A DNA stretch of 64,000 bases, taken from a virus (lineage: Duplodnaviria > Heunggongvirae > Uroviricota > Caudoviricetes). Positions 1,959-57,697 of the stretch are shown here, in pieces (the stretch's first letter is position 1; each line of letters starts with the position of its first letter). The stretch lies in IMG/VR virus record IMGVR_UViG_3300021400_000025, positions 86,479 through 150,478 of that record; one strand, given 5' to 3'. Made by a program: the position numbers and the translations under genes. The notes beneath the pieces were generated by a model. That model was given only the letters and a program-made list of their open reading frames with translations. It did not search any database and had not been told where the DNA came from.

Positions 1959-1990
1959 TATTTACCATTGTGCGTGGGAAATGGTAAATA
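1959..1990. promoter_or_regulatory. divergent pair of late-promoter-like motifs (AATGGTAAATA on each strand), together forming a 10-bp inverted repeat
   Basis: tatttaccattg at 1959-1970 is the reverse complement of aatggtaaata at 1980-1990. The pair lies between the divergent genes starting at 1952(-) and 2024(+). The same motif recurs at 13887, 60071, 61111(-) and 61917. Confidence 0.45.
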
Positions 1991-2023
1991 CCATCCATAG
2001 AGAGATACATAGGAAAATCGACA

Positions 2024-2935
2024 ATGGTTAGCATCAACAACATAGCGGATCTCAAGAACAGAACATTGATGGAAAGCAACACGTTCAAATCGTTTGTGTT
2101 GTCTTCACAGTCCAACGACTTCACAAATCCTCCATCATTGAACGACATTCTGATACATGAATTCCAGACGGCGAACTCCATCACCTTGAATTCCATCTTG
2201 TCGAACTTCATAGTGAATCTGAAATATGCGTGGACAAAGTGGCTTGATCCACAGTCCATGCAGCATACATCGTATTTTCAAGTTCGGAGGGAGGGCGAAT
2301 CCTACTCCAAGCTGGACGACGAGGTTCGGCTTCTTCTGGACATCATGGACGATGGGACAGGGACGTTCAAGTCCAGATATCTGGAGATGGATGCAGTGAC
2401 CATGACCCCCTCGGAGGGGATTTCCAGATACATCTCCCTTGGTGGATTGTGGTATGGTGTGCAGAAGGTTGCGTTGAGGGACAATGAGGATGACGACAAG
2501 TTGGTTCTGGATTCAGAAAACAACTATATCAGCACAGAGAACCTTGTGCTTGCTCCTGAGCCGTTGAACGACTTCACGATGCACGCCAATCCTTATGGTA
2601 CGAATCCATTTGATGCGCCTGGTTGGGCATGGGACGATGAAGGGAATGCTCCAGATGAACCCAATCGGGGTTCGTTCAACGAGTTCATGAAGGTGCGTGC
2701 TGGAAGCGTCTTGAAAACATCCATCCAGATAGACTGCATTGTTGAAAACCTCTTCAAGGGCAACCAGTTCGACTGCGCGAAGGACGATCTTCTCGCCAAG
2801 TGGATATTTCCCGAATCAGAGTTCATCGTGTGCGCGGGTCATGGGATTTACGCCTTGGAGATGCAATATGACAATGGCAAGTTCGTGGGGATGATGATGT
2901 GGGACATAGGCAAGTTGATTCCCAATCTTGATTAG
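2024..2935 (+). CDS. standard-code segment 1 (303 aa) of the recoded ORF 2024..11590
   Basis: ORF track. It ends at TAG, and the frame stays open into 2987. Confidence 0.4.
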   Translation: MVSINNIADLKNRTLMESNTFKSFVLSSQSNDFTNPPSLNDILIHEFQTANSITLNSILSNFIVNLKYAWTKWLDPQSMQHTSYFQVRREGESYSKLDDEVRLLLDIMDDGTGTFKSRYLEMDAVTMTPSEGISRYISLGGLWYGVQKVALRDNEDDDKLVLDSENNYISTENLVLAPEPLNDFTMHANPYGTNPFDAPGWAWDDEGNAPDEPNRGSFNEFMKVRAGSVLKTSIQIDCIVENLFKGNQFDCAKDDLLAKWIFPESEFIVCAGHGIYALEMQYDNGKFVGMMMWDIGKLIPNLD

Positions 2936-5900
2936 AGCAAATACGAGAATTTTGAGTACGACTTCAAGTGGTGTGGGTTCATCTCCATGGACGAAATAAG
3001 CACATTGGTGGTGATGTTCAGTGACAAGAATGGCAAGTATCACTACGCATATGTCAATGAGAAGTCCTATGACGCGGCATATGGATTCACCCCCATACGC
3101 GATTTGGTGGACAACACATTGACGACCAATCCCCAGTTGGTGTTCAACAGAGTTGATTCAATCAAGCAGCTTGGCGATGTCAACATTGCGATGACCGACT
3201 ATGGCTTCTGGGACTTGGAGTTGAACCAGACGGACAACATCACATATTCATTCAGACACACGGGCAAGTCATACAAAGCATGCACATGGAATGGACATCT
3301 CATGACCAATACCAAGATAATACTTCCTGACAATCACCAGATGATGCCTGGGTCAAAGATATGCGAGTACGACAAGCAGTGGACATTGGATGATTCAACG
3401 AACACCCATTGGGTCATGGATGATTCCACAAAAAGCCAATTCGTTGATGTTGTGAGGGTTGATGGCGAGAAGCATAAGTTCGTGGGTGGACTTCCTGGAA
3501 ACTTCGCATTGTATGATGTCAGCGAAAGCAGTCCGGCGCAGTTGCTTGTTGACATGGATGAAAACGAGTTCAAAAGAGCCATCTTCGCGGATTCGGAGTT
3601 GGCATATAGGTTCACTGAATGGCTGTATGGTCAAGTGGTCTATCCAAACAAGGGGCAGAAGTACATAGACGACATAAAAACAGATGCATGGTGGACTGGA
3701 GATTTCCAGACAAAAGCAGAAACCAAGTCCATATCTGATGTGATATACCCACTTTCTTCCAGTTCGTTCTTGGTTGGCAAGTTCGAGGACATACGACATA
3801 TGATTGGCGATGAAGCCACCTCCCTTCAAGATTACTGCAAAGCATTGGCAGACATCAATGCCACGCCACCATCTTCTGATTTGAATTGGCTTGTCTCTGA
3901 TCAATCATCCTTGGAAGAAGCAATCAAGACTTGGTTCCGCGACACTGACAATGAAAATGGATTCAGTCAAAGGCACAAAGATGGTTTCGTTTAGGAGTTG
4001 ATGCCTCTCATTCAGGGGGAATATCCTCTTCTCTTCACGCACTTCAAGCAGTATTTGAACGATTGGTTGAACGAGACCATTGAGATTCAGGAAGGAGATT
4101 CGCAGACACTGACTTTCACCAATGTGGAGGAGATTTCCAGGAAGGTGAAGGACTACATCATGAGTCTGGTTCCAGTATGTCTGGAGATGGTTGGTTCCGA
4201 TCAATCTGATCTTTTGAGGAAGAACCGTCTTCATCAGAACCAGTTCATGCTTGGGAAGTCCCAGGCATTGGACATATACTCTCCCATGAACGCCAGCAAC
4301 GAGATGCTGAAGGCAGTGAAATCTACACCATTCTTCATGAACGCCAATTCCTATAGTGGAATCATCCAGACCAATGGTTCGCCGTTCAAGATTGAATAGA
4401 ATGTGGAATACGCCAAAAAGTCTGGAATGGTGGATGGCGATGGGAATATACAGTTGAATTGGAATGGCATCAAAGAATGGTTGCTTGGTGATGAAGTCAA
4501 GCAGGATGTGAACGTCCTTAAGGCTTTGGTCAAGACCCAGCTATATCGTCCATTGTTCTTCAAGCATGATGACTACGAGCATTTCACTTCTGATGCAAGC
4601 AAGTATTGGTGCGAGACGCAAAAGTCCTTCAACGACCATAATGGGGTTCTTCATCTTGTCAAATGGGAAAAAGATGGTGACGATGGGGAGAAGTGGGGGG
4701 ATTTGGATCCATCTGGATCAGGATTGACGAGTGATGCTTCAAACATGGAATATACTGAGCAGAAATACAACAAAATCTCCAATGTGATATCATACAATGT
4801 TGTTGTCAAGGACGTGCCCATTGTTGATGGCAAGTTCGTCTACAACGATGTTGAGTTCTATGTCGTCAAGGATAAGGACAACAACCCCACATCTGTGTAT
4901 TTCAACGAGTTCCAGAAGGAAATGGAGCAGTACACCCAGAAGATTGAGATTGAGGACAATAAGTTCAAAATCCAGATCAAATTCATTGACCCACGTGGAC
5001 AATTGGCCGTCAAGGATGTTGAATGCGAATTGATTGATGGTGGCACGAAGGTCAAATTGAATGGGCATGAACAGGAAGTCCATGATGGCATGTTCAATGT
5101 TGATGGCGTGTGGTATGTACTCAACAATGAAGAAAACATTGTGAAGTTCTTCAAGGTGGATGACAGTCTTTTGAGGAAATTGGTGGTTTCCCAGGATGGG
5201 CATGTCATGTTCGATAGGTGGAGTCTTGACATGGAGTTTGGTGGCAATGGTGGAAGTAGCGCAACAGTTGACATCACGCGCCACTATGACATGCCTGTTG
5301 TGGATGTCCTGGTCAAGGAATGGTGTGAATATGACAATTAGCCCATAGTCATTGATGAATTGCGCACATTTGAATGGTGGCTGGCGACCAAAATCAACGA
5401 CATGCGCATAATGCCACAATATCAATCCAGTGTGGATGCTCTGGGGAATGGAAATCTATATGATGGTGGGTTGATGGGTTCCCACTGCGTGTTCTCAGTG
5501 GAGAATGTGGTGGTGGATGGATATGTCCAGAGCCGAGGGGTGTTGACGAAGGGCGAGGGCGATTCCGCAGTGCGCATTGATTTGGGCGTTCTCTACAACG
5601 ACCAGATGGAATTGATTTCCACTAGAACGTTCAGGGGGACTGTCAATGATGCTGGCGAGATAGAAGAAGACCCAACTGGTGGATTCAGGTTCATATTGGA
5701 TTCTGAGGATTCCCCACGCAACATCTGCCATTGCTTCTGGTTGGAGGAGTCCAGGTACAAAAGCACACATTCCCACCAGGATGCTGTCGCGGATGTTGAA
5801 TTCATCTTGGACTACGACCAAGACGACAATGGGACGCCAATGGAGCCAGACCTGTCATAGACTGATTGGCAGATTGCTGTTGATTTTGGTGGACGTCCAG

Positions 5901-8900
5901 GCTTCCCCGAGTATCTGCATCTCACCCCAATCGAGGTGGTGACGCTCTCTGCAAACAAGCGCACGATACGGTTCAATGTGGATGTCAATGAGAATCGGGT
6001 GGGGAGCTACATTGTGAATTCCAGGGACGATAAGGTGGATGTTGTTGTGGATGGAAGGAGATATCGTCTGGATTTGAATGCGAGGACAGTGGAATCGTGG
6101 ACTCTCCAGAATGTTGAGGTTAGCACGATGGACTTCTCCACCCAATACACCCCCCAGACCCTTCGCGATGCGATGGTCAAGAACATTCAGCAGTGGATGC
6201 TGGGCGAGATTGTCCATGCCATGTCCCACAACAACGATGAAAATCCAACCATCATGAAACTGGAGTTGACGGACAAGATGAAGTTGTGGCTGGACATGTT
6301 CGCGGACGACGAGAGTGTTCAGATGCACCTTTTGGCTCAACCCAATGCTGACACCCAGTCCGAGGTGAAGTTCAGAGAGATCTTCAAGAACGATTGGGTG
6401 GAGGAGCGCAACGATTCTGGTCAAGGTCTGGCGTGGAAACATCTAAAGGAAACGATAGATGGGGTGTATGGCGATCAGGTGTCCTTGTCGTTGAACACCG
6501 AACCTGCAATGGAGGTTGGATACGACGAGAATGGCGTGGCAAAGACATTCACCCTCAAGGTGCATGTTGATGTCCATGTCATGCAGAACAGAGACTTGGT
6601 GAAAAACACACCAAATTTCAACGACAAATGGATGGCTTCTTCCGCGACCCTGCACGATGTTGTGTTCTATGTGGAATTCACGCCCAAGTTCTCGTATCAG
6701 TCCAACCCCCTTTCATATGATGTGGAATATGGGATTGAATCTTCAGACAGCATTCTCGCCACCATTGATGGCATCATATTCAACAGTCTTGGAAAGACCA
6801 GAACAAAGACATTGGAAGTTCCAATTAGGATAGAGAGATTCAGTTTAGATGGGATGGAATCTGGACAATCTTCGATGTCCGATCTCAATGGTTTGCTGCC
6901 TGACCAGTTGCTTCCGAAATTTCTGGATTCAACAAAGAGCAGAGCTTTGCTTGAATCTGTCAACGAAAAGATTGATTCGTCGGCATCCTCCTTGGTTGTT
7001 GGAAGTCAAGTCGTCGTCAATGCCCAGATGAAGGATGATGGCGATATCCAGACTGGACATGCGTGGGAGATTGGCTCGCCCATACCATCTGAATCATCTC
7101 TGGGTGGTCTTCAATTCATGGAGGAGAGCCGAGGAAGAACCCAGATATCGGGCGAGGAGTATCAATTGGTTTCATCTGACTCGCGGTTGGTTTCTTTGGA
7201 CGACAACAAAGTCTACTTTGATGTGGAGGAGATAGACCGTGGAATCATTGGCGAACAAGGGAAAGTCCATGTCGCATTGACTGATGAGGAAGTCCCCGAC
7301 TCAACCTATTTGAATGGTTGGTTTTCGCTGGAGAACATCAACGACACAATGTATCTCAAAATCAATGCCAAGAATGGTGGTGATTCCATCTCCTTGCCAG
7401 AGAACAAGGGGGAACTGGTTCTTCATGCCAGTGATTTCCCTGAATTCAAGCAAGAGTACAAGTGGACGATGGGGGATTCCACCACTAGTTCCTTGTGGCA
7501 ATACACATCTGAATTGACTGTCCAAGATGAAAACTGGAACTTCAAGGTGGAGAAGATGCGGTTGGAGAATGATGGAACGGGGTCCGAAACATCCTCAACA
7601 GAATCTGAATTGGTTGGTTCAGCCACGAGAAGCAGTTTAAGTTTCTTGCTGCTGGAGGATGACCAACCAAAGCTGGACGAGCAAGACGACAAATGGGTTG
7701 GTTTTCTGTCTGAAGACGAAGCAGATTCCTCCCAGTCTGGTGTTTTCATGGGACCGAGCCTTACAAACCAAGACGATTTCCATGTCAAGTTGATGTGGGA
7801 AGTTGGTGAAAATGTCGAACCAAAATACTATTTGGTGAACGACAATGCACCAGAAGTCTGTGATGTTTCATCAGAGGATGGCGCATTGTTGTTTGATTAT
7901 GAGTTGCCAATCCAAGTTTCCCCATCAAGTGATGAACCATCATCAAGTGATGAACCATCATCAAGTGATGAACCATCATCAAGTGATGAACCCAAGAAGT
8001 ATGGAGTGGATGGCAAATAGAAGATCAGATTCAAGTTCAACATTGATTCCGACACGAATGAAATAACCTTGTCATAGGCGCAATTGGTGAGCGACACCAA
8101 CAACCGCGATGTGCGTGTTCTTCTTGGTGGCATTCCTGACGCGAAGTTGTGGGATGATGCATTGAATTAGAATGAGAATGAGGATGCTTTGGTGGCGAAG
8201 AACAGCATGAAATCCACTGTGGACAGATGCATGATATACCATACTGTGGGCTTGTTGGGAACCAATGCCGAGTATATTCCAACAGACACTTTCACTGTTG
8301 AGTCATAGGAGACCGTGATGGATGGTGGAATTGAGTTTTCGTTCAAGTTGAAAGTCCAGACCATCGTACAGATGCTCTATGTTGATTAGACCACGGACCA
8401 GAATCCACAATAGGTCATATTTGATCAATATCTGCTGGCAAAGACCTCATCAACAGATATCCCATCGGTGGACAGATTGTTCGCGCTCAAGACATTCTCC
8501 GGCGACAACATCATCATCATAGACTCGACATCTTCATCAATAGACAAAATAGACAATGCGTTTGCGTGGATTCCCACGAACCTGAAAAACGGCATCAAGC
8601 GGGATGAGTATGACTTGAAGATGTTCTATTTGAATGATTTCGTGCCGTCAAATTCATCGTTGCCCAGCTTGAGATATTGTCCGTGCGATATTGTCTCACT
8701 GCCCCCAGACCAGGCTCCATCGCGCGATGGCGAAGTATATGGCAGACAATACACTCACAAGAAGGACATTGTGGTTGAACACACAGACATTGATCAGAAT
8801 GACGCAAATGGGAAGTTCTGGTTGAATCTTGCAGATACCCTCAAGTCAATCACAATCATCCCATCCAATGACCAGTATCCTGATTTGATGCCTGAAAGTG

Positions 8901-11590
8901 ACATCAGCATTCCTGATGCGCTGCGCCAGAAGATGATGGAGCTTGTGGACAACATCATGAAGTTGGACAATGGCTACTTCAGCATGGTGTATCAACAGTT
9001 CAAGCAATTCATGGATGTCCTTGTGGGTGAGTTGTCCAGGAGCATTGACATGGAACACATCAAGGATTTGTGTCGATTCAAGTTCAACAACACAGTGACT
9101 TTCAATGGAAGGACATGGAAAATGTTGAATCCCATCCCACCACCATTGAACAGTACATACAAATCCTGCTTGGACGCATTCGATCTCCATCTATGGAAGC
9201 AATTTTGCGACGACTTCATGCGGGTTGATGATTTGACAGTATACGATGATCGCGACTACAAGCATATTCTCTTACCTGACTACTATGATCAGTATCAATC
9301 AAAGATATAGGCCATGAAGAATGCCAAACTTGGCGACTTGTTCCAGCAACTGGATGAGATGGATGGCATCTATGATGAAGTGTTTAGGGATCTCGCCGAC
9401 AAGGTCAGGTTCATCAATCTTGTTCCCACCACCATCAAGGGTGGAATCAAGGGCATGTTCAACGCAGATGATCAGTGCAATGTGTTCCATTCGCAGGGAG
9501 AGACCATTGTTTGGCGCAGATTCTTCTCGTCTGAACCACAGATGAAGACCATACTGCACAACAAGATTTCCAATCCTGTGGGGAACCATGTGTTCGACCC
9601 ATAGTTCCAGATATTGGACTTTGGCATTGATGATGATGGTTGGTTGTTCAAGTTCGCCAACAGGGATTTGACGCATGACGACACGATGGCGATATCGGAT
9701 GCGTTCTGCGTCCATTGCGAGGGGGATTTGTGGCATCTGAATGTACTTGACACATATTTCAGATCCCCCACATCATATCGCATCAAGGACATCGCCTATG
9801 AGCAGAACGAAGATTGCATCTATGTTCTGTTCTCCGACGACAACCATCTATACAGGTTCGATCATCCATCCATTGGGCAGGATTCCAGGAAATGCGTTCT
9901 TCTTGTGAAGGAGTCTGCAAGCATGAAGATTGAGACGTTCTCCACTGTCCAATTGCAGGATGGCAGTCCATAGTTGGAATCCGTCTATCTGGACTATGAA
10001 GGGTCGGACAATTGGACGATTAGGTTGTACGCCAACGAGTCTGTGGAGACATGGCCCGGAAGTCCATCGTTCTCCATGTTCCAGACCTACAACAACATTT
10101 TGTTCGGGAACTCCTTGTTCAACTCAGGGCAGATGCAGTTCCACAACATATCGAAGAACAAGTAGATGGTGGACATGTTGGATGTCAATGAGGTGGATGA
10201 CCTCTACTATGGATTGTTCAAGAGCAATGTCAAAGGTGATGATGGTGGGTACACGGTGTTCAAGTCATCTGGAGATGGGCAGGGGGTCGTGAAGCGTCTT
10301 CCTTGGAAGGTCGTTGTCCCCAGCATGTTCAGGACTTGCGATCCCTTGTATTCGCTCTATGTCGTGGTCAAGGGGGATGATGGCAAGGTTCAACTGCGCG
10401 AGATTTCATGTCCTGACCAAGACATCTACGCCGACAGAGTGATTGAGGTGCAGCGGATTCTGGAGGAGAAGGATGGCGAGGAGGTGGGCGACTTGAACAT
10501 CAGCTGGCTGATGATGGACGATTTCATCTTGCGCTCTCCCCAATCTTCGTTCTTGATGCTCTCCAACAAGGGGTTGTCCAGAATCCACTATGTCTCCCGC
10601 ATGAAGCAGTTGTCCATAGATGGGCTTCCTGAGTTCAAGGATCTTCTGGCGAAGACATTGAAGGATGGCATTCTCCATAGGCACATGGAGGAGAAGCATG
10701 TCGAGGATTTGTTCAAGCAGATTGAACGCAAGGTCAATCAGCGTGAAACTGGATTCAGCGTGTTCGATTTGCTTCCGACAGAATTCCAACAGACCCAGGA
10801 CATTGGCGTGATTCCAGACTCCAAGATTGACGATGACGACGATTTCACCGATCATAGATCAGACTCCATACAAGTGTCCACCGACTTGACGATGGCAGAT
10901 GGCATGTTCGCGTCAGTCGACACCAATCCTGGGATTGTCTCTGGGGCAGTGGCCAATCCAGCCACAACATATGACAGCGACTATGTGTTCTTGAAGTCCC
11001 AGCGCAACCCCTCCATAGTGGGAACGGAGTTCTATGACTACATCACCGACACTGATGGGAACATCTTGATGGATTTGTATCAGATTCCCTTCATATACCA
11101 GGTCAACACCAACAACACATATGACCTCTACATCAACCTCCCCACAACCAGAACCAAGTATCTGAACAGAATCGCGGGGACTTTGAAGGATGACTTGACA
11201 AGCCAGGTGTTGAAGGATGATGTCCGCGCCAGATTGAACTTCAACAACGAGATGATGCCGAACAACCTTGACGAATCCACAACAAGGTTGAGGGTGTACA
11301 TCGACAGAAAATACATCTCAATAGGCAATGTCGAGTTGGTTGAGATTTCGGGCAACTCAATCCCACTTCAGATATACAGGGACAGTGGCGCGAACAATGA
11401 TCTCTACGATTCAATAGCCCTTGAAAGCAGATGGGATGGAGAGGTTGTTGAAATCAACGAGCCAAGCAAGGACATCAACAAGGTCATGTTGGAGTTCGAG
11501 TGCTATGGAACCGACTCTCAGTCAATCCACATCCAGGGCAAGACCTTGATTAACAGGGCGTTGGACGACAAGAAATACATCTTTGGCTGA
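2024..11590 (+). CDS. composite giant ORF of about 3188 codons, continuous in one frame. It contains 15 in-frame TAG codons and no TGA/TAA, and terminates at TGA 11588-11590. Putative recoded virion megaprotein
   Basis: All eleven standard-code ORFs between 2024 and 11590 share frame 2. Every junction is a TAG followed by open frame, which I verified codon by codon (TAGs at 2933, 3992, 4397, 5339, 5858, 8018, 8075, 8168, 8306, 8387, 8411, 9308, 9602, 9971, 10163). The internal 'starts' have no Shine-Dalgarno sequence. A TAA at 1985-1987 closes the frame upstream. Confidence 0.55.
2987..3994 (+). CDS. standard-code segment 2 (335 aa) of the recoded ORF
   Basis: ORF track. Same frame as segment 1. 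Ends at TAG. Confidence 0.4.
   Translation: MDEISTLVVMFSDKNGKYHYAYVNEKSYDAAYGFTPIRDLVDNTLTTNPQLVFNRVDSIKQLGDVNIAMTDYGFWDLELNQTDNITYSFRHTGKSYKACTWNGHLMTNTKIILPDNHQMMPGSKICEYDKQWTLDDSTNTHWVMDDSTKSQFVDVVRVDGEKHKFVGGLPGNFALYDVSESSPAQLLVDMDENEFKRAIFADSELAYRFTEWLYGQVVYPNKGQKYIDDIKTDAWWTGDFQTKAETKSISDVIYPLSSSSFLVGKFEDIRHMIGDEATSLQDYCKALADINATPPSSDLNWLVSDQSSLEEAIKTWFRDTDNENGFSQRHKDGFV
3998..4399 (+). CDS. standard-code segment 3 (133 aa) of the recoded ORF
   Basis: ORF track (TTG start). Same frame. Ends at TAG. Confidence 0.35.
   Translation: MMPLIQGEYPLLFTHFKQYLNDWLNETIEIQEGDSQTLTFTNVEEISRKVKDYIMSLVPVCLEMVGSDQSDLLRKNRLHQNQFMLGKSQALDIYSPMNASNEMLKAVKSTPFFMNANSYSGIIQTNGSPFKIE
4403..5341 (+). CDS. 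standard-code segment 4 (312 aa) of the recoded ORF
   Basis: ORF track (GTG start). Same frame. Ends at TAG. Confidence 0.4.
   Translation: MEYAKKSGMVDGDGNIQLNWNGIKEWLLGDEVKQDVNVLKALVKTQLYRPLFFKHDDYEHFTSDASKYWCETQKSFNDHNGVLHLVKWEKDGDDGEKWGDLDPSGSGLTSDASNMEYTEQKYNKISNVISYNVVVKDVPIVDGKFVYNDVEFYVVKDKDNNPTSVYFNEFQKEMEQYTQKIEIEDNKFKIQIKFIDPRGQLAVKDVECELIDGGTKVKLNGHEQEVHDGMFNVDGVWYVLNNEENIVKFFKVDDSLLRKLVVSQDGHVMFDRWSLDMEFGGNGGSSATVDITRHYDMPVVDVLVKEWCEYDN
5360..5860 (+). CDS. standard-code segment 5 (166 aa) of the recoded ORF
   Basis: ORF track (TTG start). Same frame. The TAG at 5858 is followed by open frame up to 5936. Confidence 0.35.
   Translation: MRTFEWWLATKINDMRIMPQYQSSVDALGNGNLYDGGLMGSHCVFSVENVVVDGYVQSRGVLTKGEGDSAVRIDLGVLYNDQMELISTRTFRGTVNDAGEIEEDPTGGFRFILDSEDSPRNICHCFWLEESRYKSTHSHQDAVADVEFILDYDQDDNGTPMEPDLS
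5936..8020 (+). CDS. standard-code segment 6 (694 aa) of the recoded ORF. It ends with a PSSSDE tandem repeat
   Basis: ORF track (GTG start). Same frame. Ends at TAG 8018. Confidence 0.4.
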   Translation: MVTLSANKRTIRFNVDVNENRVGSYIVNSRDDKVDVVVDGRRYRLDLNARTVESWTLQNVEVSTMDFSTQYTPQTLRDAMVKNIQQWMLGEIVHAMSHNNDENPTIMKLELTDKMKLWLDMFADDESVQMHLLAQPNADTQSEVKFREIFKNDWVEERNDSGQGLAWKHLKETIDGVYGDQVSLSLNTEPAMEVGYDENGVAKTFTLKVHVDVHVMQNRDLVKNTPNFNDKWMASSATLHDVVFYVEFTPKFSYQSNPLSYDVEYGIESSDSILATIDGIIFNSLGKTRTKTLEVPIRIERFSLDGMESGQSSMSDLNGLLPDQLLPKFLDSTKSRALLESVNEKIDSSASSLVVGSQVVVNAQMKDDGDIQTGHAWEIGSPIPSESSLGGLQFMEESRGRTQISGEEYQLVSSDSRLVSLDDNKVYFDVEEIDRGIIGEQGKVHVALTDEEVPDSTYLNGWFSLENINDTMYLKINAKNGGDSISLPENKGELVLHASDFPEFKQEYKWTMGDSTTSSLWQYTSELTVQDENWNFKVEKMRLENDGTGSETSSTESELVGSATRSSLSFLLLEDDQPKLDEQDDKWVGFLSEDEADSSQSGVFMGPSLTNQDDFHVKLMWEVGENVEPKYYLVNDNAPEVCDVSSEDGALLFDYELPIQVSPSSDEPSSSDEPSSSDEPSSSDEPKKYGVDGK
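7921..7992 (+). repeat. 18-nt tandem repeat ccatcatcaagtgatgaa (about 4 copies) encoding (PSSSDE)n
   Basis: Seen directly in the sequence and in the translated protein. Confidence 0.7.
8468..9310 (+). CDS. standard-code segment (280 aa) of the recoded ORF
   Basis: ORF track (GTG start). Same frame as 5936..8020. Five closely spaced TAGs (8018 to 8413) separate it from the previous segment. Confidence 0.4.
   Translation: MDRLFALKTFSGDNIIIIDSTSSSIDKIDNAFAWIPTNLKNGIKRDEYDLKMFYLNDFVPSNSSLPSLRYCPCDIVSLPPDQAPSRDGEVYGRQYTHKKDIVVEHTDIDQNDANGKFWLNLADTLKSITIIPSNDQYPDLMPESDISIPDALRQKMMELVDNIMKLDNGYFSMVYQQFKQFMDVLVGELSRSIDMEHIKDLCRFKFNNTVTFNGRTWKMLNPIPPPLNSTYKSCLDAFDLHLWKQFCDDFMRVDDLTVYDDRDYKHILLPDYYDQYQSKI
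9314..9604 (+). CDS. standard-code segment (96 aa) of the recoded ORF
   Basis: ORF track. Same frame, TAG-delimited on both sides. Confidence 0.35.
   Translation: MKNAKLGDLFQQLDEMDGIYDEVFRDLADKVRFINLVPTTIKGGIKGMFNADDQCNVFHSQGETIVWRRFFSSEPQMKTILHNKISNPVGNHVFDP
9614..9973 (+). CDS. standard-code segment (119 aa) of the recoded ORF
   Basis: ORF track (TTG start). Same frame, TAG-delimited. Confidence 0.35.
   Translation: MDFGIDDDGWLFKFANRDLTHDDTMAISDAFCVHCEGDLWHLNVLDTYFRSPTSYRIKDIAYEQNEDCIYVLFSDDNHLYRFDHPSIGQDSRKCVLLVKESASMKIETFSTVQLQDGSP
9974..10165 (+). CDS. standard-code segment (63 aa) of the recoded ORF
   Basis: ORF track. It starts on the codon right after TAG 9971 and ends at TAG 10163. 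Confidence 0.35.
   Translation: MESVYLDYEGSDNWTIRLYANESVETWPGSPSFSMFQTYNNILFGNSLFNSGQMQFHNISKNK
10166..11590 (+). CDS. terminal standard-code segment (474 aa) of the recoded ORF. Ends at TGA
   Basis: ORF track. Its ATG directly follows TAG 10163 in frame. Confidence 0.45.
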   Translation: MVDMLDVNEVDDLYYGLFKSNVKGDDGGYTVFKSSGDGQGVVKRLPWKVVVPSMFRTCDPLYSLYVVVKGDDGKVQLREISCPDQDIYADRVIEVQRILEEKDGEEVGDLNISWLMMDDFILRSPQSSFLMLSNKGLSRIHYVSRMKQLSIDGLPEFKDLLAKTLKDGILHRHMEEKHVEDLFKQIERKVNQRETGFSVFDLLPTEFQQTQDIGVIPDSKIDDDDDFTDHRSDSIQVSTDLTMADGMFASVDTNPGIVSGAVANPATTYDSDYVFLKSQRNPSIVGTEFYDYITDTDGNILMDLYQIPFIYQVNTNNTYDLYINLPTTRTKYLNRIAGTLKDDLTSQVLKDDVRARLNFNNEMMPNNLDESTTRLRVYIDRKYISIGNVELVEISGNSIPLQIYRDSGANNDLYDSIALESRWDGEVVEINEPSKDINKVMLEFECYGTDSQSIHIQGKTLINRALDDKKYIFG

Positions 11591-13925: not shown

Positions 13926-15509
13926 ATGAAGAACGAACTTGATTGCATATTGAAGAACGAGATTCTGGAGGGATGCATGGATTCCCTGTTGGAATTCTCC
14001 GAATCTGGCGATGGCTCTGCGGTGAAGGTGTATGGTAAGATTGCGGGATTGCCTTGCATTGGCAGGACATATTTCACCACGCAGAAGGAGTTGGATGTGA
14101 CGAACGAGGATGCCCAGACATAGATGATGCAGAAATATGGGGCGGAGACCTATGGCTCCTCTGCGCAATTGAGGCAATAGAGCGCAGATAGATAGAAGGG
14201 GACAGGAACTGAGACGGGGATTGGGTCTGTCGTGGACAGCAAAGACTCCTTGATAGATTGCTCGTTCAAGCCATTGATGAAGCTTCCTGTGAAGTTCCGC
14301 GAATCCATCTGGGGTGGGAATCCAGGCAAGGATTTTCAGGACAAGTGGCAGAAACTGGTTGAGTTGATACAGGGGAAAAGCAAAGACGAAAACTGGGCGA
14401 AGAGCAACCCCAAGATGAAGGAATTGGTTGGGAAGAGGTTTTCGCCTGGTTCTGGGGTTGATAGTCTGGACAACACCAAGCCGTGGAGCGAAGTGCAGAC
14501 CATATTCAACGACAAGGATGTCCAGGCGATGTTGAATCGGGAAAAAGATTTGAACAAGAAGTGGACTGAAGTCCGCAATGCGTGGAATGAGTGGAGTGAA
14601 TCTTCGGGTGGTGGCTCATCTGGCTCTTCTTCTGGTGGAAAGGGAGGTGGTTCTGATTCATCGAAATCGGGTTCTTCTGAATGGGATCCCAGATAGACAT
14701 ACAGGATAGACATCACCACGAAATTCGACAAGAACTGGTTTCAGCGAAAGTTCAAGAGTGGCATGCTCAACAAGATGATAATGGGTTTGAAGACGATGGC
14801 CATGGCGAATCTGGCAAGCGACAGCAAGAACGATAAGAAGGGTTACAAGTACACCGGAAACGAGATGCTTTCCCAGGACGAGCGGAAATTGGACAAAATC
14901 CAGTGGAATATGACGAACAAGGTGGCGAAGGACTACATCACTTATCTTCTTGGGTGGAGCAGAAAGAAGGAGTATTACATGGACGGTTCCCAGCCCAAGG
15001 CTGCATCCACTGCGGATCTTCGAGTTGATGCTGGCGTGGGGAAGAAGTTCGCAGACAAGGCGTTGAGCAATAGAGGCATATTGGGAAGGTTGAGATAGAA
15101 GCTGTTTTCTGGTGGTCAGTCCAACAATGTGGTTTCTGTGGCGTTTCAGTTGGCTGATTGGCGCGATGGATGGAAACTGGTGGAGGAGGATAAGAAGAAG
15201 GGTGGTGAGGAAGGATCTTCTGGTAGGGAGGATGGCGGAAAAGAGGGAGGTGGCTCTGCTGGCTCCGGTGGAAAAGATGGTGGTTCGTCTGGCTCAGGAT
15301 CAACTGGAGTGGGTGGAGGTGGATCGTCTGGGGCTGCAGGCTTGGGCGAGAAGGACATGGACAGTCTAATGACGCTTCTTCAACGGGTCAGGAATGTGGA
15401 GAAGGAGGTATATGGAAAGCAGATGGATGAATCCACATCCAAGGACAACAATGTGGACGGACTTGTGGATGAAGTTCTAATGGCGTACATAGGAGAGAGC
15501 AATGGCTAA
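13926..15509 (+). CDS. composite recoded ORF of about 527 codons with 5 in-frame TAGs (14121, 14178, 14193, 14694, 15096). Gly/Ser-rich linkers. Ends at TAA
   Basis: Track ORFs 13926..14123, 14232..14696, 14763..15098 and 15129..15509 are all in frame 0. Only TAG codons lie between them (verified). A TGA at 13917 closes the frame upstream. Confidence 0.5.
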
Positions 15510-24955: not shown

Positions 24956-26128
24956 ATGTTGAAGGTTCAAGAGTTCATCAAGGGCAACTCGGATTGGGAG
25001 TGCTTGCTTTCGTCCGAGCCTTATTGCATCTCAATATCGCACGATACGATGTATGGGCGCGATTTGGTCATGTTCAAGTACGACCAGATTCGCTCTGACT
25101 TGTCCATTCCTCTTGTTCAGGAGTGTCGTGGTCTGATTCTGGATTCAAACACCTTCGAGGTCGTGTCCCATCCCTTCCACAAGTTCTTCAACTATGGAGA
25201 GGAACTGGCTGTGGACATTGACTGGAAAACAGCCTGGACATCCAGTAAGATCGACGGATCCATCATCAAGGTCGTGAATCTGGATGATGACAATTTCCTG
25301 ATTTCAACGAATGGCATGATTGACGCATTCAAGTGTTCTCTGCCTGAGAACTATGGCCGTCCGTTTGAGACCTTTGGCGAGCTGTTTCTGGAGGGAATGA
25401 AGTTCTATGGTCTGACGATGGATGATTTTCCCCGGCTGTTCAAGCCTGGATTCACCTACATGTTCGAGTTGACTTCTCCTTGGAACCAGGTTGTGGTGAA
25501 TTGGAATGAAACCAAGGTGTGGTTCATTGGGGTGAGGGACAACAGGACTGGCGAGGAGATTAGGTTCTCTGACCACGAACTGTCCAAGATCTTCGACACT
25601 CCCAGGGTGTTTCCGATGAGGTCGTTCGATGATGTGGTGAAGGCTGCGAAGGAACTTCCTGACGACGAGGAGGGATATGTGGTGTGTGATTCTGGATTCA
25701 GAAGGGTGAAAGTCAAGTCCCCCCGATACGTCCAGCTCCACTACATGGCCGGCAACCAGATTTGGTCTCCAACGAGGGTCATGGAGATAATCCGGGACAA
25801 CGAGGTGTCGGAGTATGTGGCATACTTCCCCAAGTTCAAGGTGGCGTTCGACGAAATCAAGGCGAAGTACGATGCCTATGTGGATGAACTGGAGGATGTG
25901 AAGGAGGCCATTGACAATCTGATGGTGGTGGAATGGAACATCACCAAGAAGGACTTCGCCAAGTGGGTGTTCACCATCAACACCATCCGCCCTTACTCTG
26001 GGTTCGCGTTCTCCTACTTTGATTCAGTATACGCGAAAGTCAAGAAGGACGATGCCCTGGTCAGGAACGTTGACGAGTACCTTGCCAAGATGCCCACTGC
26101 GAAGTTGGTGGAGGCTCTTGGATTGTAA
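24956..26128 (+). CDS. rnlA: ATP-dependent RNA ligase 1 (T4 RnlA / gp63 family)
   Basis: Track ORF 24926..26128, with the ATG at 24956 lying after SD caaggagc. The motifs VQECRGLIL, KIDGSII (the KxDG nucleotidyl-lysine motif) and EGYVVCDSGFRRVKVKSPRY match T4 Rnl1 ALECRGIMF, KEDGSLV and [20 protein letters not shown]. Confidence 0.8.
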   Translation: MLKVQEFIKGNSDWECLLSSEPYCISISHDTMYGRDLVMFKYDQIRSDLSIPLVQECRGLILDSNTFEVVSHPFHKFFNYGEELAVDIDWKTAWTSSKIDGSIIKVVNLDDDNFLISTNGMIDAFKCSLPENYGRPFETFGELFLEGMKFYGLTMDDFPRLFKPGFTYMFELTSPWNQVVVNWNETKVWFIGVRDNRTGEEIRFSDHELSKIFDTPRVFPMRSFDDVVKAAKELPDDEEGYVVCDSGFRRVKVKSPRYVQLHYMAGNQIWSPTRVMEIIRDNEVSEYVAYFPKFKVAFDEIKAKYDAYVDELEDVKEAIDNLMVVEWNITKKDFAKWVFTINTIRPYSGFAFSYFDSVYAKVKKDDALVRNVDEYLAKMPTAKLVEALGL

Positions 26129-26153: not shown

Positions 26154-26753
26154 ATGAAGATTGTCAACGAGATTGGGTTGAACAGGTTGTTCAACAAGCA
26201 TACCGAGAATGGCTATGTCATGGTGTCTGCTTGCCGCCATGACTGGAGCGATGACGATGAGGTTGAGAATCGCGAAATCAACAACATCAAGACGAAGGAG
26301 CTGAAGGAGGACATCCAGAAGGCCGGCTACCAGTACATCCCTGTCCAAGGTGGATTCGTTGAAGACGATGGCACCGAGGTTGTTGAGAGGTCGTTTCTCA
26401 TCGTCAACTTCAGAAACAAGTCCGGCAAAGGGGAGCCAGCCGGCGACTTCTCCAAGTTGAAGGATCTCGCAATCAGTCTGTGTGGCAAGTACAACCAGGA
26501 TTCAGTTCTTGTGGTTGAGCCCGGTGGCAAGCCAACCTACTACACCCGAGAGGGCGAGGTTGATGGTCAGTTCAATTCTGTTTCTGCAAGAGACGCGGCC
26601 CAGCAGTATTTCACCAGGATTGGTGGTGGAAGGAAGTTCTCGTTCATCGAGGGGGCTTCCCAACCAGGAACAATCAATGGAGTGCGTTCAAGGCGCATGA
26701 CTGGCGAGATTTGCGAGTTGGCCGGCTATGACAGGCGCAGGAAGGGAAAGTGA
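26154..26753 (+). CDS. hypothetical protein (199 aa)
   Basis: ORF track. SD aaggagaaacc. Confidence 0.5.
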   Translation: MKIVNEIGLNRLFNKHTENGYVMVSACRHDWSDDDEVENREINNIKTKELKEDIQKAGYQYIPVQGGFVEDDGTEVVERSFLIVNFRNKSGKGEPAGDFSKLKDLAISLCGKYNQDSVLVVEPGGKPTYYTREGEVDGQFNSVSARDAAQQYFTRIGGGRKFSFIEGASQPGTINGVRSRRMTGEICELAGYDRRRKGK

Positions 26754-37511: not shown

Positions 37512-38558
37512 ATGTGGAAAGGAAACAACGGCAAAATGATTGAAGTGGAGTCAAAGGCAAGCAGGGTCTCAATTCCAGTATCCAGAGCAGTGTTCTCGGA
37601 TTCTGCGATAAGCCTCTACGACATCTTCAACAAGGAGGTGTTTGACGATACTGTTTCTGTCCAAGATGGCTTCCAGAAGTTTGTTGAATTGGTGTATTCT
37701 GGATTCAGTTTCCAGCCACCAACGATGAACACGGTTCCAGTCAAGTTCCCAGAGAATGTCCCAGATGTTGACCCCAACATGGTCCTTGTGGCAGTGAGTG
37801 GTGGACTTGACTCCATAGCGCAGATGCTTTTCCTCAAGGAAAGTGGGCGTTCAATCGTTGCATACACGATGGCTAACATGAACCGAAGTTGTGGTGGTCA
37901 GGAACTCAAGGCGATGAAGGCTGTATGCGAGAAGGTTGGTGTTCCGATTGTTGAGGCGAGATACGTTGGCAACTTCAAGAAGGACAATCCATACAGAAAG
38001 CACTGGGCAGAGAACCCAATCAAGAACCAGATGATAATGGCAACGATGGTGGATTGGTGCATCGAGAATGGGTGCAGGACGATTAGCCTTGGAGAGAAGG
38101 ACAACTTCTTCCTCAAGGACTGCGTTCCAGGAACAAACTTCACCGACGCATCCGAGGTGTCGAGGACTTTCATTGAGTGCGTGAACAGACATGTTGGGAT
38201 TGACTATCTGACGATGGATTTGTCCATCACAAAGCTGGACGAGTTGAAGATTGCCATGAAGTATGGGGTTGAGGATCTTCTGTTCAGTTGCTTCTCGGCC
38301 CAATCCTCCAACAAGTGCCATGAAATGAACCAACGGAAGTATGGCATCACGTTGTGGAGGAACAACTGTGGATGCTCTTGCAGGAAGTGCGCACACTACA
38401 ACCTTCTTCTCCATTATGGTGGGATCAAGGCGTTCCCACAGGATTTCGTGGACGCCTGTTGGAGAAAACTCTACTCCACGAAGGAATTGAAAAACACGTT
38501 CAACCCAAGCATGGACGAAAAGACGAGGATGGAGAACTTGTTCAACTTTTCCGCGTGA
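37512..38558 (+). CDS. queC: PP-loop ATP pyrophosphatase, QueC-like (7-cyano-7-deazaguanine synthase family) with an N-terminal extension
   Basis: SGGLDS PP-loop motif, plus a C-terminal Cys cluster (CGCSCRKC) like the QueC zinc site. The length (348 aa) is atypical for QueC. Confidence 0.5.
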   Translation: MWKGNNGKMIEVESKASRVSIPVSRAVFSDSAISLYDIFNKEVFDDTVSVQDGFQKFVELVYSGFSFQPPTMNTVPVKFPENVPDVDPNMVLVAVSGGLDSIAQMLFLKESGRSIVAYTMANMNRSCGGQELKAMKAVCEKVGVPIVEARYVGNFKKDNPYRKHWAENPIKNQMIMATMVDWCIENGCRTISLGEKDNFFLKDCVPGTNFTDASEVSRTFIECVNRHVGIDYLTMDLSITKLDELKIAMKYGVEDLLFSCFSAQSSNKCHEMNQRKYGITLWRNNCGCSCRKCAHYNLLLHYGGIKAFPQDFVDACWRKLYSTKELKNTFNPSMDEKTRMENLFNFSA

Positions 38559-39540: not shown

Positions 39541-39590
39541 CCACGATGCTAAAGACATCGTGGCTTCACGGATGTTCTGCTTCGCAGAAC
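39541..39590 (-). ncRNA. two perfect hairpins (ccacgatg-N7-catcgtgg and gttctgc-ttc-gcagaac) at the 3' end of tnpB. Candidate omega-RNA / IS right-end structure
   Basis: Stems read directly in the sequence. Their position matches where IS200/IS605 TnpB guide RNAs are encoded. Confidence 0.35.
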
Positions 39591-40843
39591 GACCCGCGCT
39601 GTATTCGCCTTGGCGAATCACCCCTACGTTCCATAGGTACTTTAAGATTTTTCTCGACAAGGTCCTTGATGTTCAACATGTTCTGTGCGGCATGGATGTC
39701 TCTGTCTTGTTCGTATCCACACTAACACTTGTATGTCCTATCATTCAAGGATAGTTCGTTCATCTTATGGCAATGAGGACACCACTTCGTTGTTGGGATG
39801 TACTTGTCCAATATGATGACATTATCAAGTTTCATCAACTTGGATTTGATTGTTCCCATGCAACTGTGTTGAATAACTTTTGACATTCCTTTTTGCTTGT
39901 GCCATTCTGCCAGTTGCTCGTCTTGTATCACGATTGTGTCATATTGCTTTAGCATATGAACTATCTTGTTTGCCTTGTCTTTTTTCTTATTCGTCAGCTT
40001 CTGGTACTGACGACGGATTCTCTTGATTGTCTTGTATCTCCTGTTTGAACCTTTCTTTTGACGTTGCAGTTTCTTCTGCAACATCTTGAGTCGTTCACTT
40101 TCTTCAACAGATACGTCAAGTTTCTCACCTTCTGAAGTCGTTATGTTCGTTTTGATGCCAAAATCCAGACCTATTTCCTTGTCGTTGGTTTTGGTTTTTG
40201 GCATCTTGTTCTTGTCTATGTAGCATGTCACCTTAAGATAATAGCCATCTGGTTTCTTCAACAAATTTGCATTGGCATATTCATCTACATTCGATAATTG
40301 ATGTGTTCCACGAACTAATATCTTGCCATGTATTCCTTGTATCTTGATCTTGTTTTCTGACTTGAAACTATATGTCTATCCATATTGCTTGAGTGGAATG
40401 CAATTCAATTCAGACTTGAACTGCAAGTTGCCAAATTTCTAATGTCCCCTTTTGACAAGTTGTATTATGGCCATTTGATTGGAGACCATTCTTGCCAAGA
40501 TTGCCTGCTTCTATGCTGCCGACAAGTATTTCAATTCAGATTGAATCAAGTTCTTGTCCTTGTCGTAGTGGTTTACTGTTTTGATGTTTGTGGAGTTGAT
40601 GTCGGATAATCTCAATCCAGATTGTTGATGCAGATTGAGGACATGATTGTAGAACCACTTTCCCTCAACAAAGAGCATGTCAAGTTCTTCGTGTTGGCGT
40701 TTGTTCAATCGTTTCTCTACAATCTTTAGTTCATATGACTTGACGACTTGGTTCTACCTGCGAAGTCTTGTTTGGCTTCGGGTTGCAATAATCTTGTTCT
40801 TCTTTTCGTCAGAACAGACCAATCTATTGTCAATATCCTTCAT
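39566..40843 (-). CDS. tnpB: IS605/IS1341-family TnpB (RuvC-like RNA-guided nuclease). Intact only if 5 in-frame TAGs (40754, 40511, 40439, 40376, 39722) are sense codons
   Basis: Manual minus-strand translation gives one frame from ATG 40843 to TGA 39566, broken only by TAGs. RuvC-I is EIGLDFGIKT, RuvC-II is VIQDEQL, the zinc finger is CPHC...C(TAG)CGY, and RuvC-III DRDIHAAQNMLNI lies after TAG 39722. Track ORFs 39722..40264 and 40511..40708 are fragments of it. Confidence 0.65.
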
Positions 40844-40982
40844 CACATATATTATTTACACAAATCTATACTAAAACTCACTATAATTCTTTACAAAAAT
40901 TCAAGAAAGTTGTATAATATTGATAGCGATTTACATGCGATACTAAAGATATCGCATCTATCTCGCCAGGTTCAATGTATAA

Positions 40983-41384
40983 TTGAACTGTGAAGCAATA
41001 GGACAGGACGGATACATGTACACAGTAAAGGCAAACATTCCACAGTACGAGCCAAAGAACGCGCCACCAAAGAGCCTCATGGACACCTTGAAGATGGACA
41101 AGTTCAAGGAGTTGATGTCGGGTATCGAGAAGTCTGGCGTGTCACCAGAGGAGAAGCAGTTTCTCAAGATAGCCGCGTTCAGGCATGTTGTGTTCAACTA
41201 TGGGAAGATTGCCGACTATTATGCCTGCGCCTCTCCCGAGATGCAGAAGCTGATGGAGGACTCCGCCCTTGTGATAATCGACATGGACGATGCGATTGCG
41301 AAGGGCTATGTGCGCCTTTCCGAGTCAATCAAGAAGATAGTGGCGAAAAGGCTCGCTGACGAGGGGAAGACGGATGCGAAATGA
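40983..41384 (+). CDS. hypothetical protein (133 aa)
   Basis: ORF track. A tgtataattgaac -10 lies upstream. Confidence 0.5.
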   Translation: MNCEAIGQDGYMYTVKANIPQYEPKNAPPKSLMDTLKMDKFKELMSGIEKSGVSPEEKQFLKIAAFRHVVFNYGKIADYYACASPEMQKLMEDSALVIIDMDDAIAKGYVRLSESIKKIVAKRLADEGKTDAK

Positions 41385-42246
41385 CTTCTGCATATTCTGT
41401 CTGACCTACAAGAGGCCGGACAACATGTACACGGACAAGACTCTGCGCGAGGCTGGGTATACTGGCGACATCCAGTACATTGTTGGGGACGATGATCCAA
41501 CCGTTGGAAGGTACATCGAGAAGTATGGGGCCGACAAGGTTCACGTTTTCAACAAGGAAGAGGTTGGAAAGACATTTGACACCTGCGACATAGAGGGTTC
41601 AAACAAGGTCATAGTGTACGCAAGGAACTATTGCTTCACCGTCGCCAAACAACTTGGGTTGAAGTATTTCGCCCAATTCGACGATGACTACGATAGGTTC
41701 GAGTACAGATTTCCAGTTGGGGAGAAGTTGAAGACAATCAACGTGAGGGAGTTCGATCAGATAGTTGACCTCATGATTCAGCTTCTTGACGACACCGGCG
41801 CCCTGACTTGCGCCTTTGCCCAGAATGGGGATTTCCTCGGAGGGGTTCAAGGGGACGTGACACACAACAGAATGAAGAGAAAGGCGATGAACTCGTTTTT
41901 CTGCCGAACTGACAAGCCATTCAAGTTCTTTGGAAGGATCAACGAGGACGTGAACGCCTACTGCACCCTTGGTTCAAGGGGAGAGCTGTTCTTCAGCGTT
42001 GTTGACGTTGCGCTCCACCAGAAGACAACCCAATCCAACAAGGGTGGGATGTCGGATGTCTATGTTGATGATGGCACGTACCTCAAATCGTTCTACACGG
42101 TGATGAACTGTCCATCTTTCGTGAAGATAGCTGCCATGGGGAACACCCCCGAGACAAGGCGCATACACCACAGGGTGTCGTGGGAGACTGGAGTTCCAAA
42201 GATAATCAGCGACAAGTACAGAAAGCCAAGGGAAGGATTGGATTGA
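41374..42246 (+). CDS. hypothetical protein (290 aa) with a DxD-like acidic motif (QFDDDYDRF), possibly a glycosyltransferase-like enzyme
   Basis: ORF track. The functional guess is weak. Confidence 0.4.
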   Translation: MRNDFCIFCLTYKRPDNMYTDKTLREAGYTGDIQYIVGDDDPTVGRYIEKYGADKVHVFNKEEVGKTFDTCDIEGSNKVIVYARNYCFTVAKQLGLKYFAQFDDDYDRFEYRFPVGEKLKTINVREFDQIVDLMIQLLDDTGALTCAFAQNGDFLGGVQGDVTHNRMKRKAMNSFFCRTDKPFKFFGRINEDVNAYCTLGSRGELFFSVVDVALHQKTTQSNKGGMSDVYVDDGTYLKSFYTVMNCPSFVKIAAMGNTPETRRIHHRVSWETGVPKIISDKYRKPREGLD

Positions 42247-42250
42247 CAAA

Positions 42251-53228: not shown

Positions 53229-53993
53229 ATGAACCTTGGAATCCCAGATTGTTGCCCCGTGTGTGGGGGCAAACTTGAAATCATCACGTCAAAGGATGGC
53301 GTGAAGAACCTGTTTTGTGTGAACGAAAAATGCCCTTCGCGCTTCAACGAGCAAGTATCCGCGTTCTGCGAGAGGCTTGGCATCATGGGCGTTTCCAACA
53401 CAACCCTTGAGAATTGGGGCATCAAGACCATACAAGACATAGTGGATTTCAAGCCCAATCCAGCGTACAAGAACGAGGTGAAATTTGCCGAGGAACTTGA
53501 CAAGAAGATGTGGAACGCCAGCAAAGAAAGCATCTTCATCGCGTTGTCCGCGCTTGTGTATGGCGTTGGAAGAAGGGAAATGAAGAAGTTCTGGGACAAC
53601 TGGGGTTCTGGTTGCCTTGACAGTCTGATTTCAATTGAGAACCCATCCGTGAAGGAGCAGATGATTATGGACTCGTTGAAGGTTGTCAAGGAGGCGTATT
53701 TCTCCATTGTTGACAATCCGAAGTACAACGAGCCGAAGGTGGTTGAAACCCCCAAAGTGGATTCAAGCAAAGGGAGCATCTGCTTCACCGGCAAACTTGA
53801 AACCATGACCCGTTCTGTTGCCCAGGACAAGGCGAGGAAGCTGGGCTACGAAATTGCGGAGTCCGTTGCGAAGGGGCTTGGCACATTGGTTGTTGCTGAC
53901 GCCGGACTGAAGGGTGAACCATCGTCAAAGCTGAAGAAGGCGCAGAAGTTGGGAATTCGCATCATGAGCGAGACCGAGTTCAACGCGCTTTAA
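53229..53993 (+). CDS. ligA: NAD-dependent DNA ligase C-terminal module (Zn finger, HhH, BRCT), encoded as a separate gene
   Basis: CPVCGGKL...C.NEKCP is the LigA-type Zn finger. The C-terminal ICFTGKLETMTRSVAQDKARKLGYEIAESVAKGLGTLVVADAGLKGEPSSKLKKAQKLGIRIMSETEF is a BRCT domain. Confidence 0.7.
   Translation: MNLGIPDCCPVCGGKLEIITSKDGVKNLFCVNEKCPSRFNEQVSAFCERLGIMGVSNTTLENWGIKTIQDIVDFKPNPAYKNEVKFAEELDKKMWNASKESIFIALSALVYGVGRREMKKFWDNWGSGCLDSLISIENPSVKEQMIMDSLKVVKEAYFSIVDNPKYNEPKVVETPKVDSSKGSICFTGKLETMTRSVAQDKARKLGYEIAESVAKGLGTLVVADAGLKGEPSSKLKKAQKLGIRIMSETEFNAL

Positions 53994-56536: not shown

Positions 56537-57697
<1,161 letters not shown>

Follow-up and report, generated by a model that had tools for sequence, protein, structure and literature searches.

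A cluster of six in-frame TAG codons in a giant gene of a sheep-rumen phage that appears to read TAG as glutamine

Introduction

The Lak megaphages, some crAss-like phages, and the clades described by Borges et al. (10.1101/2021.08.26.457843) use genetic code 15, under which TAG specifies glutamine. In code-15 phages only late genes contain the recoded stop, a suppressor transfer RNA (tRNA) of the phage presumably decodes it as infection proceeds, and it has been proposed that recoded stops time the expression of these genes (Borges et al., 10.1101/2021.08.26.457843). Peters et al. (PMC9523058) report that glutamine at TAG was confirmed by mass spectrometry in such phages. Here we describe a 64,000-nt stretch of a Caudoviricetes genome (positions 86,479 to 150,478 of IMG/VR record IMGVR_UViG_3300021400_000025), referred to below as the window, in which six TAG codons lie close together in one frame of a giant open reading frame (ORF). 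The original prediction for this locus offered three readings of the TAG-dense segment: a recoded linker, a site of regulated readthrough, or a decayed region.

Code 15 in huge phages is already known, and the giant gene is another case of it. As in the phages listed above, in-frame TAGs fragment genes under code 11, TAG aligns with glutamine, some genes are rich in TAG while others avoid it, genes end at TGA or TAA, and the source is a huge genome of animal-gut origin. The window differs from those phages in that recoding is weak (TAG makes up 10 per cent of the 143 glutamine-codon positions in the giant gene, TAG included, and there are about thirty-five in-frame TAGs in the 64 kb), that no structural or lysis function is recognisable in its recoded genes, and that a suppressor tRNA was not seen in the DNA covered. 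The GC content here is 47 per cent, whereas Lak phages are much more AT-rich.

Other systems in which a stop or a rare codon is translated also offer points of comparison. Programmed readthrough, as in Q-beta A1 and retroviral gag-pol, depends on one leaky stop that has a set context or a structure downstream of it, and yields two products in a fixed ratio. As there, ribosomes would read through an in-frame TAG and produce a longer protein, but in this phage fifteen TAGs are spread through one gene, no RNA structure accompanies them, and the same codon occurs in other genes. In the archaeal code 34 every TAG is read as pyrrolysine, and pyrrolysine-containing TnpB proteins have been reported (10.1101/2024.09.30.615893). 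The window likewise has in-frame TAGs, including in a TnpB-type gene, of the kind mis-annotated as fragments; it differs in that alignment points to glutamine and not to a lysine-like residue, and in being a bacteriophage genome with Shine-Dalgarno sites. The UUA codon of Streptomyces is readable only with a particular tRNA (bldA) and is confined to late functions, and PMC10732093 describes a single rare tRNA-dependent UUA in the linker of adpA as a regulatory device. The TAG cluster similarly adjoins an inter-domain linker. This last comparison is an analogy only and would apply if the cluster were functional, which the evidence presented here does not show.

Results

A single long gene in one frame

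From 1988 to 11590 (9603 nt) the frame that carries the cluster meets no TAA or TGA other than the closing TGA at 11588-11590. Its first ATG is at 2024, and it holds fifteen TAGs. The six TAGs that the original prediction placed in one frame of the giant ORF are all at the predicted positions (Table 1), as are the nine that it counted in the remainder. Five of these nine lie upstream of the cluster, from codon 304 on, and four lie downstream. Read under code 11, the gene falls into sixteen successive fragments, every one of them in the same frame. Public code-11 calls on the scaffold divide it into ten pieces, and leave an uncalled gap flanked by calls of 673 and 277 aa, within which a 65-aa antisense gene is called. 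The gap that a standard gene caller was expected to report is thus present in the public calls, although it measures 447 nt (8021-8467) and not the predicted 448. The 81-aa antisense ORF within the same interval is most likely spurious.

Initiation signals give the same picture of a single gene. A Shine-Dalgarno motif lies upstream of 56 of the 86 genes in the window (65 per cent), compared with 26 per cent of random positions, and none of the nine internal code-11 starts in the giant gene has one, including the GTG at 8468.

The sequence of the cluster is identical in assemblies from ENA, Logan (SRR873599), NCBI (AUXO016301094.1), and JGI (3300002641), which are possibly not independent samples. 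Because these four assemblies agree without one difference, the cluster is not an assembly artefact. The AUXO01 record belongs to the sheep-rumen metagenome of Shi et al. (2014, PMC4158751).

Coding character of the TAG-rich segment

We scored the uncalled segment (8021-8467) by codon-usage log-odds under two models, the first trained on the other ORFs of the window and the second on the giant gene minus the segment. This check, which the original prediction had proposed, gave a coding-like result. In the giant frame the segment scores +0.21 and +0.35 per codon under the two models, within the normal in-frame range of the gene, while the other two plus-strand frames score -0.34 to -0.56. Two of the minus-strand frames are also negative (-0.14 to -0.54), and the third is weakly positive (+0.09 and +0.13 under the two models); the antisense ORF may lie in any of the three. 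Within the segment there is no TGA or TAA in the giant frame, compared with seven and ten in the other frames. GC content (0.442), GC at third codon positions (GC3, 0.573), and the four base frequencies are all within one standard deviation of the 450-nt windows of the gene. Hydrophobic residues make up 39 per cent of the encoded sequence, the same share as in the protein on average, compared with 13 per cent in the low-complexity PSSSDE stretch beside the segment. Since its hydrophobic share equals that of the whole protein, the segment is by composition globular and not a hinge.

We found no promoter- or terminator-like sites in 7000-9500 and no Shine-Dalgarno site in the segment, and the RNA of the segment folds less stably than shuffled versions of itself (z = +1.78). 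A burst of C-to-T mutation was considered as a source of the TAGs and rejected, given that the base composition of the segment is within one standard deviation of the gene. The possibility that the segment is the variable region of a diversity-generating retroelement was likewise rejected: there is neither a template repeat nor a second copy of the segment in positions 1-22000 of the window, and no reverse transcriptase was matched among the window proteins scanned.

The segment is an ordinary translated stretch of the giant gene. The earlier description of it as a recoded linker therefore stands in part. It is recoded, with its TAGs apparently translated as glutamine, but a linker finds no support, given its hydrophobic content and the motifs that it shares with all of the relatives described below.

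Relatives of the giant gene

A protein search with the TAG-to-Q translation identified P0001 (lineage L001), which is encoded on an ENA contig. P0001 has 2949 aa and is colinear with the window protein along its entire length. The gene for P0001 has forty-seven in-frame TAGs, which the database translation shows as Q (code 15). Scans with the conserved C-terminal domain added five further lineages: L002 (a 414-kb IMG/VR contig), L003, L004, L005 (a 434-kb contig), and L007. Each of these five has one TAA- and TGA-free ORF of 9.5-10.4 kb containing 7-27 TAGs, counted from the first ATG. Across the related lineages, the TAG share of glutamine codons ranges from 5 to 51 per cent.

In a seven-way alignment of these proteins, the segment is present in all six relatives and is open in each, without TGA or TAA. 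The conservation check suggested in the original prediction thus shows a continuous but divergent stretch of protein: identity to the window is 16-21 per cent in the segment, compared with 33-42 per cent overall. All of the relatives share the motif GxxGKxxIKF at the start of the segment, followed by IP and FxFKLKV, and AWIPTNL after the segment. More broadly, the N-terminal ~100 aa and the C-terminal ~470 aa of the giant protein are conserved and flank a hypervariable centre. The least conserved part is 6824-8600, where column identity is 0.12-0.18, compared with 0.54-0.83 over most of the C-terminal ~470 aa. When the segment itself served as the query of a second protein search, the only match was the window's own 280-aa fragment.

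The C-terminal domain (474 aa, window 10166-11587) belongs to a much larger family. An exhaustive HMMER search recovered 118 cluster representatives at 50 per cent identity (P0019-P0136), and many members of the family are 2000-3400 aa long and carry the domain C-terminally. Function could not be assigned from these comparisons. Pfam, PHROG, and PDB searches of the giant protein (with P0001 as the PDB query) gave no meaningful match, nor did a PDB search with a profile of the 8021-8467 segment. Pfam and PHROG scans of four distant giant relatives were uninformative, with just a weak fn3 match and a weak tail-protein match in one of them. An AlphaFold2 model of the conserved C-terminal 474 aa, built from a two-sequence alignment, had a predicted local distance difference test (pLDDT) score of 28 and was unusable. 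A DNA similarity search with the window found no match among GenBank phages. The clade of phages that carry this giant gene appears to be unannotated.

Amino acid read at TAG

The residues found opposite TAG in the alignment point to glutamine, which is enriched 4.06-fold, followed by glutamate (1.66-fold); lysine shows no enrichment (1.05-fold). Where the other sequences agree with one another at a TAG column, the shared residue is glutamine in nine of nineteen cases. The closest relative, L003, has glutamine at five of the fifteen TAG sites of the window, including a CAA at the site aligned with 8411. Comparison of three members of the L001 lineage (95 per cent identical) shows that 43 of 53 TAG columns are kept as TAG; where TAG has been exchanged, CAG or GAG mostly takes its place. 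On this evidence from aligned sequences, TAG appears to be read as glutamine in the phage.

Of the 29 in-frame TAGs on the plus strand, 18 are followed by A and 7 by G, and hence 25 by a purine; this is partly due to the GA excess of the genome. In E. coli, amber suppression is reported to be favoured by A or a purine after TAG. The idea that the DNA is eukaryotic or from a ciliate (code 6) was considered and rejected, as TAA never occurs in frame, Shine-Dalgarno sites are present, and the gene content is typical of phages.

Distribution of TAG within the gene

Within 8018-8470 all six TAG triplets fall in the giant frame, and the two remaining frames contain no TAG. Six or more of the fifteen TAGs would fall within 132 codons with a probability of 0.002 under uniform placement and of 0.001 when the TAGs are dealt randomly over the 143 glutamine-codon positions, and a scan statistic calibrated over cluster sizes gives P = 0.0024. 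Put differently, TAG accounts for six of the twelve glutamine codons in the segment and for nine of the 131 outside it (Fisher P = 3e-4). None of the giant genes of the six relatives shows clustering of TAGs (P = 0.57-0.89), and the cluster is therefore lineage-specific. The clustering is real but modest, and is specific to the lineage of the window. TAGs also lean weakly toward poorly conserved regions (pooled P = 0.02), significantly so in the window, L004, and L005.

A tandem repeat adjoins the cluster on its upstream side, as the original prediction had noted, although it encodes one PSSDE and three PSSSDE units and not four of the latter. The end of the repeat is 25 nt from the first TAG, so that the cluster begins eight codons past the linker. 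The repeat is absent from all six relatives, and for this reason we interpret it as a recent lineage-specific expansion within the hypervariable centre of the protein.

Positions 8306-8320 read TAG GAG ACC GTG ATG, such that an AGGAG motif resembling a Shine-Dalgarno site overlaps the TAG and is followed by an in-frame GTG and ATG. Termination and reinitiation at 8306 were considered and rejected; with the next TAG just twenty-three codons downstream, reinitiation would be unproductive.

Table 1. Coordinates of the giant gene, the features within it, and other features of the window.
Feature	Positions	Strand	Details
Giant gene	2024..11590	+	3188 codons; 15 in-frame TAG; TGA stop
Tandem repeat	7923..7992	+	18 nt x 3.9 copies, 100% matches; encodes PSSDE + three PSSSDE; low-complexity linker
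TAG cluster	8018..8413	+	TAG at 8018, 8075, 8168, 8306, 8387, 8411; one frame; apparently read as glutamine
Segment uncalled by code-11 callers	8021..8467	+	447 nt; coding part of the giant gene, where conservation is lowest
Antisense ORF	8037..8282	-	81 aa; inside the segment; public annotation instead calls a 65-aa antisense gene at 8167-8364
Neighbouring recoded gene	13926..15509	+	527 codons; 5 in-frame TAG; in one recoded block with the giant gene
Neighbouring gene	15502..18561	+	1019 codons; 2 in-frame TAG
TnsA-like endonuclease gene	18568-19071		PF08722, 3.8e-15; TAG-free; between recoded genes
Neighbouring gene	19097..20668	+	1 in-frame TAG near the 3' end
tRNA-Arg(TCT)	23184-23259		Sole tRNA in the window; also the sole Rfam match
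TnpB-like gene	39566-40846	-	425 codons; 5 in-frame TAG; Pfam OrfB_IS605 3.6e-10, Cas12f1-like TNB 5.6e-10

TAG in the rest of the window

The in-frame TAGs are unevenly distributed over the window. In the four large left-hand genes, TAG triplets number 23/33/24 in the coding, +1, and +2 frames, compared with 0/21/15 for TAA and 0/177/225 for TGA. These counts show that in-frame TAG is not avoided in the left-hand genes, and that TAA and TGA are excluded. The corresponding TAG counts for the genes at 20.7-62 kb are 4/49/36, about ten times rarer in frame; this group holds the genes for nucleotide and DNA metabolism and includes an RNA ligase, ThyX, a split NAD-dependent ligase, a methyltransferase, and a TET-associated glycosyltransferase. 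A gene map with only TAA and TGA as stops consists of ~90 models and covers ~90 per cent of the window, so that no gene model in the window needs TAG as a terminator. Crude ORF coverage rises from 0.91 to 0.95 when TAG is read as sense.

The other genes with in-frame TAGs are listed in Table 1. The relatives also have continuous ORFs of 3.2-3.4 kb downstream of the giant gene, which we liken by position alone to the 1019-codon gene of the window. With five in-frame TAGs in the TnpB-like gene, an IS605-type nuclease gene is here written in code 15. An OrfB_IS605 gene is also present on the minus strand near the giant gene in the relatives L017 and L018. The PF08722 domain of the TnsA-like gene is recorded at a similar place in L019, a relative of the L001 lineage (25973-26062), and L013 (20098-20595) is listed as well.

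Three TAGs, at 56148, 20597, and 63722, are located a few codons before the TGA or TAA that ends the gene, and the one at 56148 is followed by AAAGGAG, which resembles the Shine-Dalgarno site of the next gene. TAGs near the 3' ends of genes may still be real stops early in infection.

TA dinucleotides are strongly depleted in the window, with an observed/expected ratio of 0.40 (0.42-0.61 in relatives L001-L007). As a result of this depletion the plus strand has only 250 TAA and 230 TAG triplets, compared with 1775 TGA. A set of DNA-modification and anti-restriction genes at 41374-43645, 37512-38558, and 26154-26753 comprises the TET-associated glycosyltransferase (PF20691, 1e-33), an adjoining methyltransferase-like gene, a QueC-like protein, and an S-adenosylmethionine lyase, which suggests from gene content that the phage DNA may be hypermodified. 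The NAD-dependent DNA ligase is apparently encoded by two genes 2.6 kb apart (53229-53993 and 56591-57697), one of which has the zinc finger and BRCT domains and the other the adenylation and OB domains.

Discussion

We consider it likely that 8018-8467 is an ordinary part of a single 3188-codon gene, in a sheep-rumen phage of ~418 kb that uses code 15 with TAG as glutamine, and that the cluster has no dedicated function. By analogy with other code-15 phages, a suppressor tRNA(CUA) encoded elsewhere in the genome would decode TAG once infection is under way, and the genes that carry TAG, including the giant gene, would be made in full only late in infection. The density of six TAGs in 132 codons would then be a lineage-specific by-product of fast and weakly constrained evolution in a place where changes to a glutamine codon are tolerated. 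The cluster is most likely a chance or neutral accumulation in the weakly constrained centre of the protein, and is probably not a dedicated signal.

Several observations weigh against this interpretation. The clustering is statistically real (P about 0.002). The stretch 7124-8017 is as variable as the cluster region and holds no TAG at all, and therefore sequence variability cannot be the whole cause of the cluster. At the position aligned with 8018, the residues in the relatives are all hydrophobic (V, F, I, M, F, F), to which glutamine is a poor fit. An IMG/VR scan with peptides from the segment found no relative that would polarise the six changes to TAG. A suppressor tRNA(CUA) was not found in the 64-kb window, in ~11 kb of flanking sequence (together ~18 per cent of the 418-kb genome), or in the loci of the relatives; the ~11 kb beyond the window ends and the fetched loci of the relatives contain no tRNA of any kind. 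Finally, Pfam and PHROG scans revealed no recognisable structural or lysis function in the recoded genes, and because their function is unrecognised, calling them late or structural is an assumption by analogy.

The alternatives fall on different parts of this evidence. If TAG were a true stop, the segment would be an intergenic gap between genes at 5936-8020 and 8468-9310, or a pseudogene, and this is exactly the picture that standard gene callers produce. It is very hard to reconcile with coding-like codon usage in a segment with no in-frame TGA or TAA and no frameshift, with sixteen fragments in one frame, with internal starts that have no Shine-Dalgarno motif, with the lack of a promoter or terminator, and with continuous genes in the relatives. 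The decayed region of the original prediction fails for the same reasons, namely the good in-frame coding score and the open segment in the relatives, and we regard a non-coding origin as highly improbable. It is just as doubtful that TAG is decoded as a residue other than glutamine, such as pyrrolysine from a host that uses it. Archaeal code 34 provides a precedent (10.1101/2024.09.30.615893), with pyrrolysine-containing TnpB proteins reported there, and the window also has a TnpB-like gene with five TAGs. Against this, the residues opposite TAG are enriched 4.06-fold for glutamine, then for glutamate, with lysine at 1.05-fold; TAG is exchanged with CAG and GAG between close relatives; and the genome has strong Shine-Dalgarno sites and phage-typical gene content.

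The remaining explanations accept that TAG is translated and address why it is so dense here. The segment might have been imported by recombination from a related phage with a far higher TAG share of glutamine codons, given that TAG is 50 per cent of the glutamine codons in the segment and 7 per cent elsewhere in the gene, and that relatives span 5-51 per cent; the hypervariable centre and the lineage-specific repeat beside the segment would also fit a mosaic history. We think such an import unlikely, as the segment matches the host gene in codon score, GC, GC3, and base composition, and no donor-like sequence was found in two protein searches, in the IMG/VR scan with the segment, or in a metagenome scan with the C-terminal domain, whose loci cover the region. 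The cluster could instead be functional, either as a gate at which suppressor tRNA competes with release factor 1 to block the full-length protein until the code switches, or as a pause that lets the upstream ~2000 aa fold. In favour of a function are the significance of the clustering and its specificity to TAG rather than to glutamine richness, its start eight codons after the PSSSDE linker, and the purine that follows 25 of 29 in-frame TAGs (A in 18 of 29), a context reported to favour suppression in E. coli. Precedents are the timing role of recoded stops proposed by Borges et al. (10.1101/2021.08.26.457843) and the single rare tRNA-dependent codon in the adpA linker (PMC10732093). Yet five TAGs upstream, from codon 304 on, would leave a gate at codon 1999 with little to add, none of the six related lineages has a cluster anywhere in the giant gene, no RNA structure accompanies it, and the A after TAG is partly explained by the GA excess. 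Regulated readthrough in particular, as first suggested, finds no support, given the lack of a stimulatory RNA structure (z = +1.78), the TAGs both up- and downstream in the gene, and the lack of the cluster in the six relatives. A gate or folding pause is accordingly quite improbable, and it is not likely that the cluster is either a selected pause or checkpoint after the linker in a weakly recoded phage or a snapshot of a new sense codon colonising the least constrained part of a gene.

Reading TAG as glutamine restores a protein of 3188 aa that the public calls break into ten pieces, with a spurious antisense ORF in the gap, and the main value of this result is practical. The fragmented public calls are consistent with recoding that is too weak to be noticed, whereas the TAG-rich P0001 was called whole in code 15. 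Surveys of genetic codes have used cut-offs of a 5-10 per cent increase in coding density (Borges et al., 10.1101/2021.08.26.457843), and since ORF coverage rises just from 0.91 to 0.95 here, the gain from recoding is perhaps below such cut-offs. The TAG cluster itself changes nothing fundamental unless it is functional. The restored protein joins a family of giant proteins from phages, about 2000-3400 aa in length, for which there are 118 cluster representatives. Within this family, the clade of the giant gene provides a natural gradient of TAG use in one orthologous gene, from 5 to 51 per cent of glutamine codons, in which the spread of a stop-codon reassignment can be studied.

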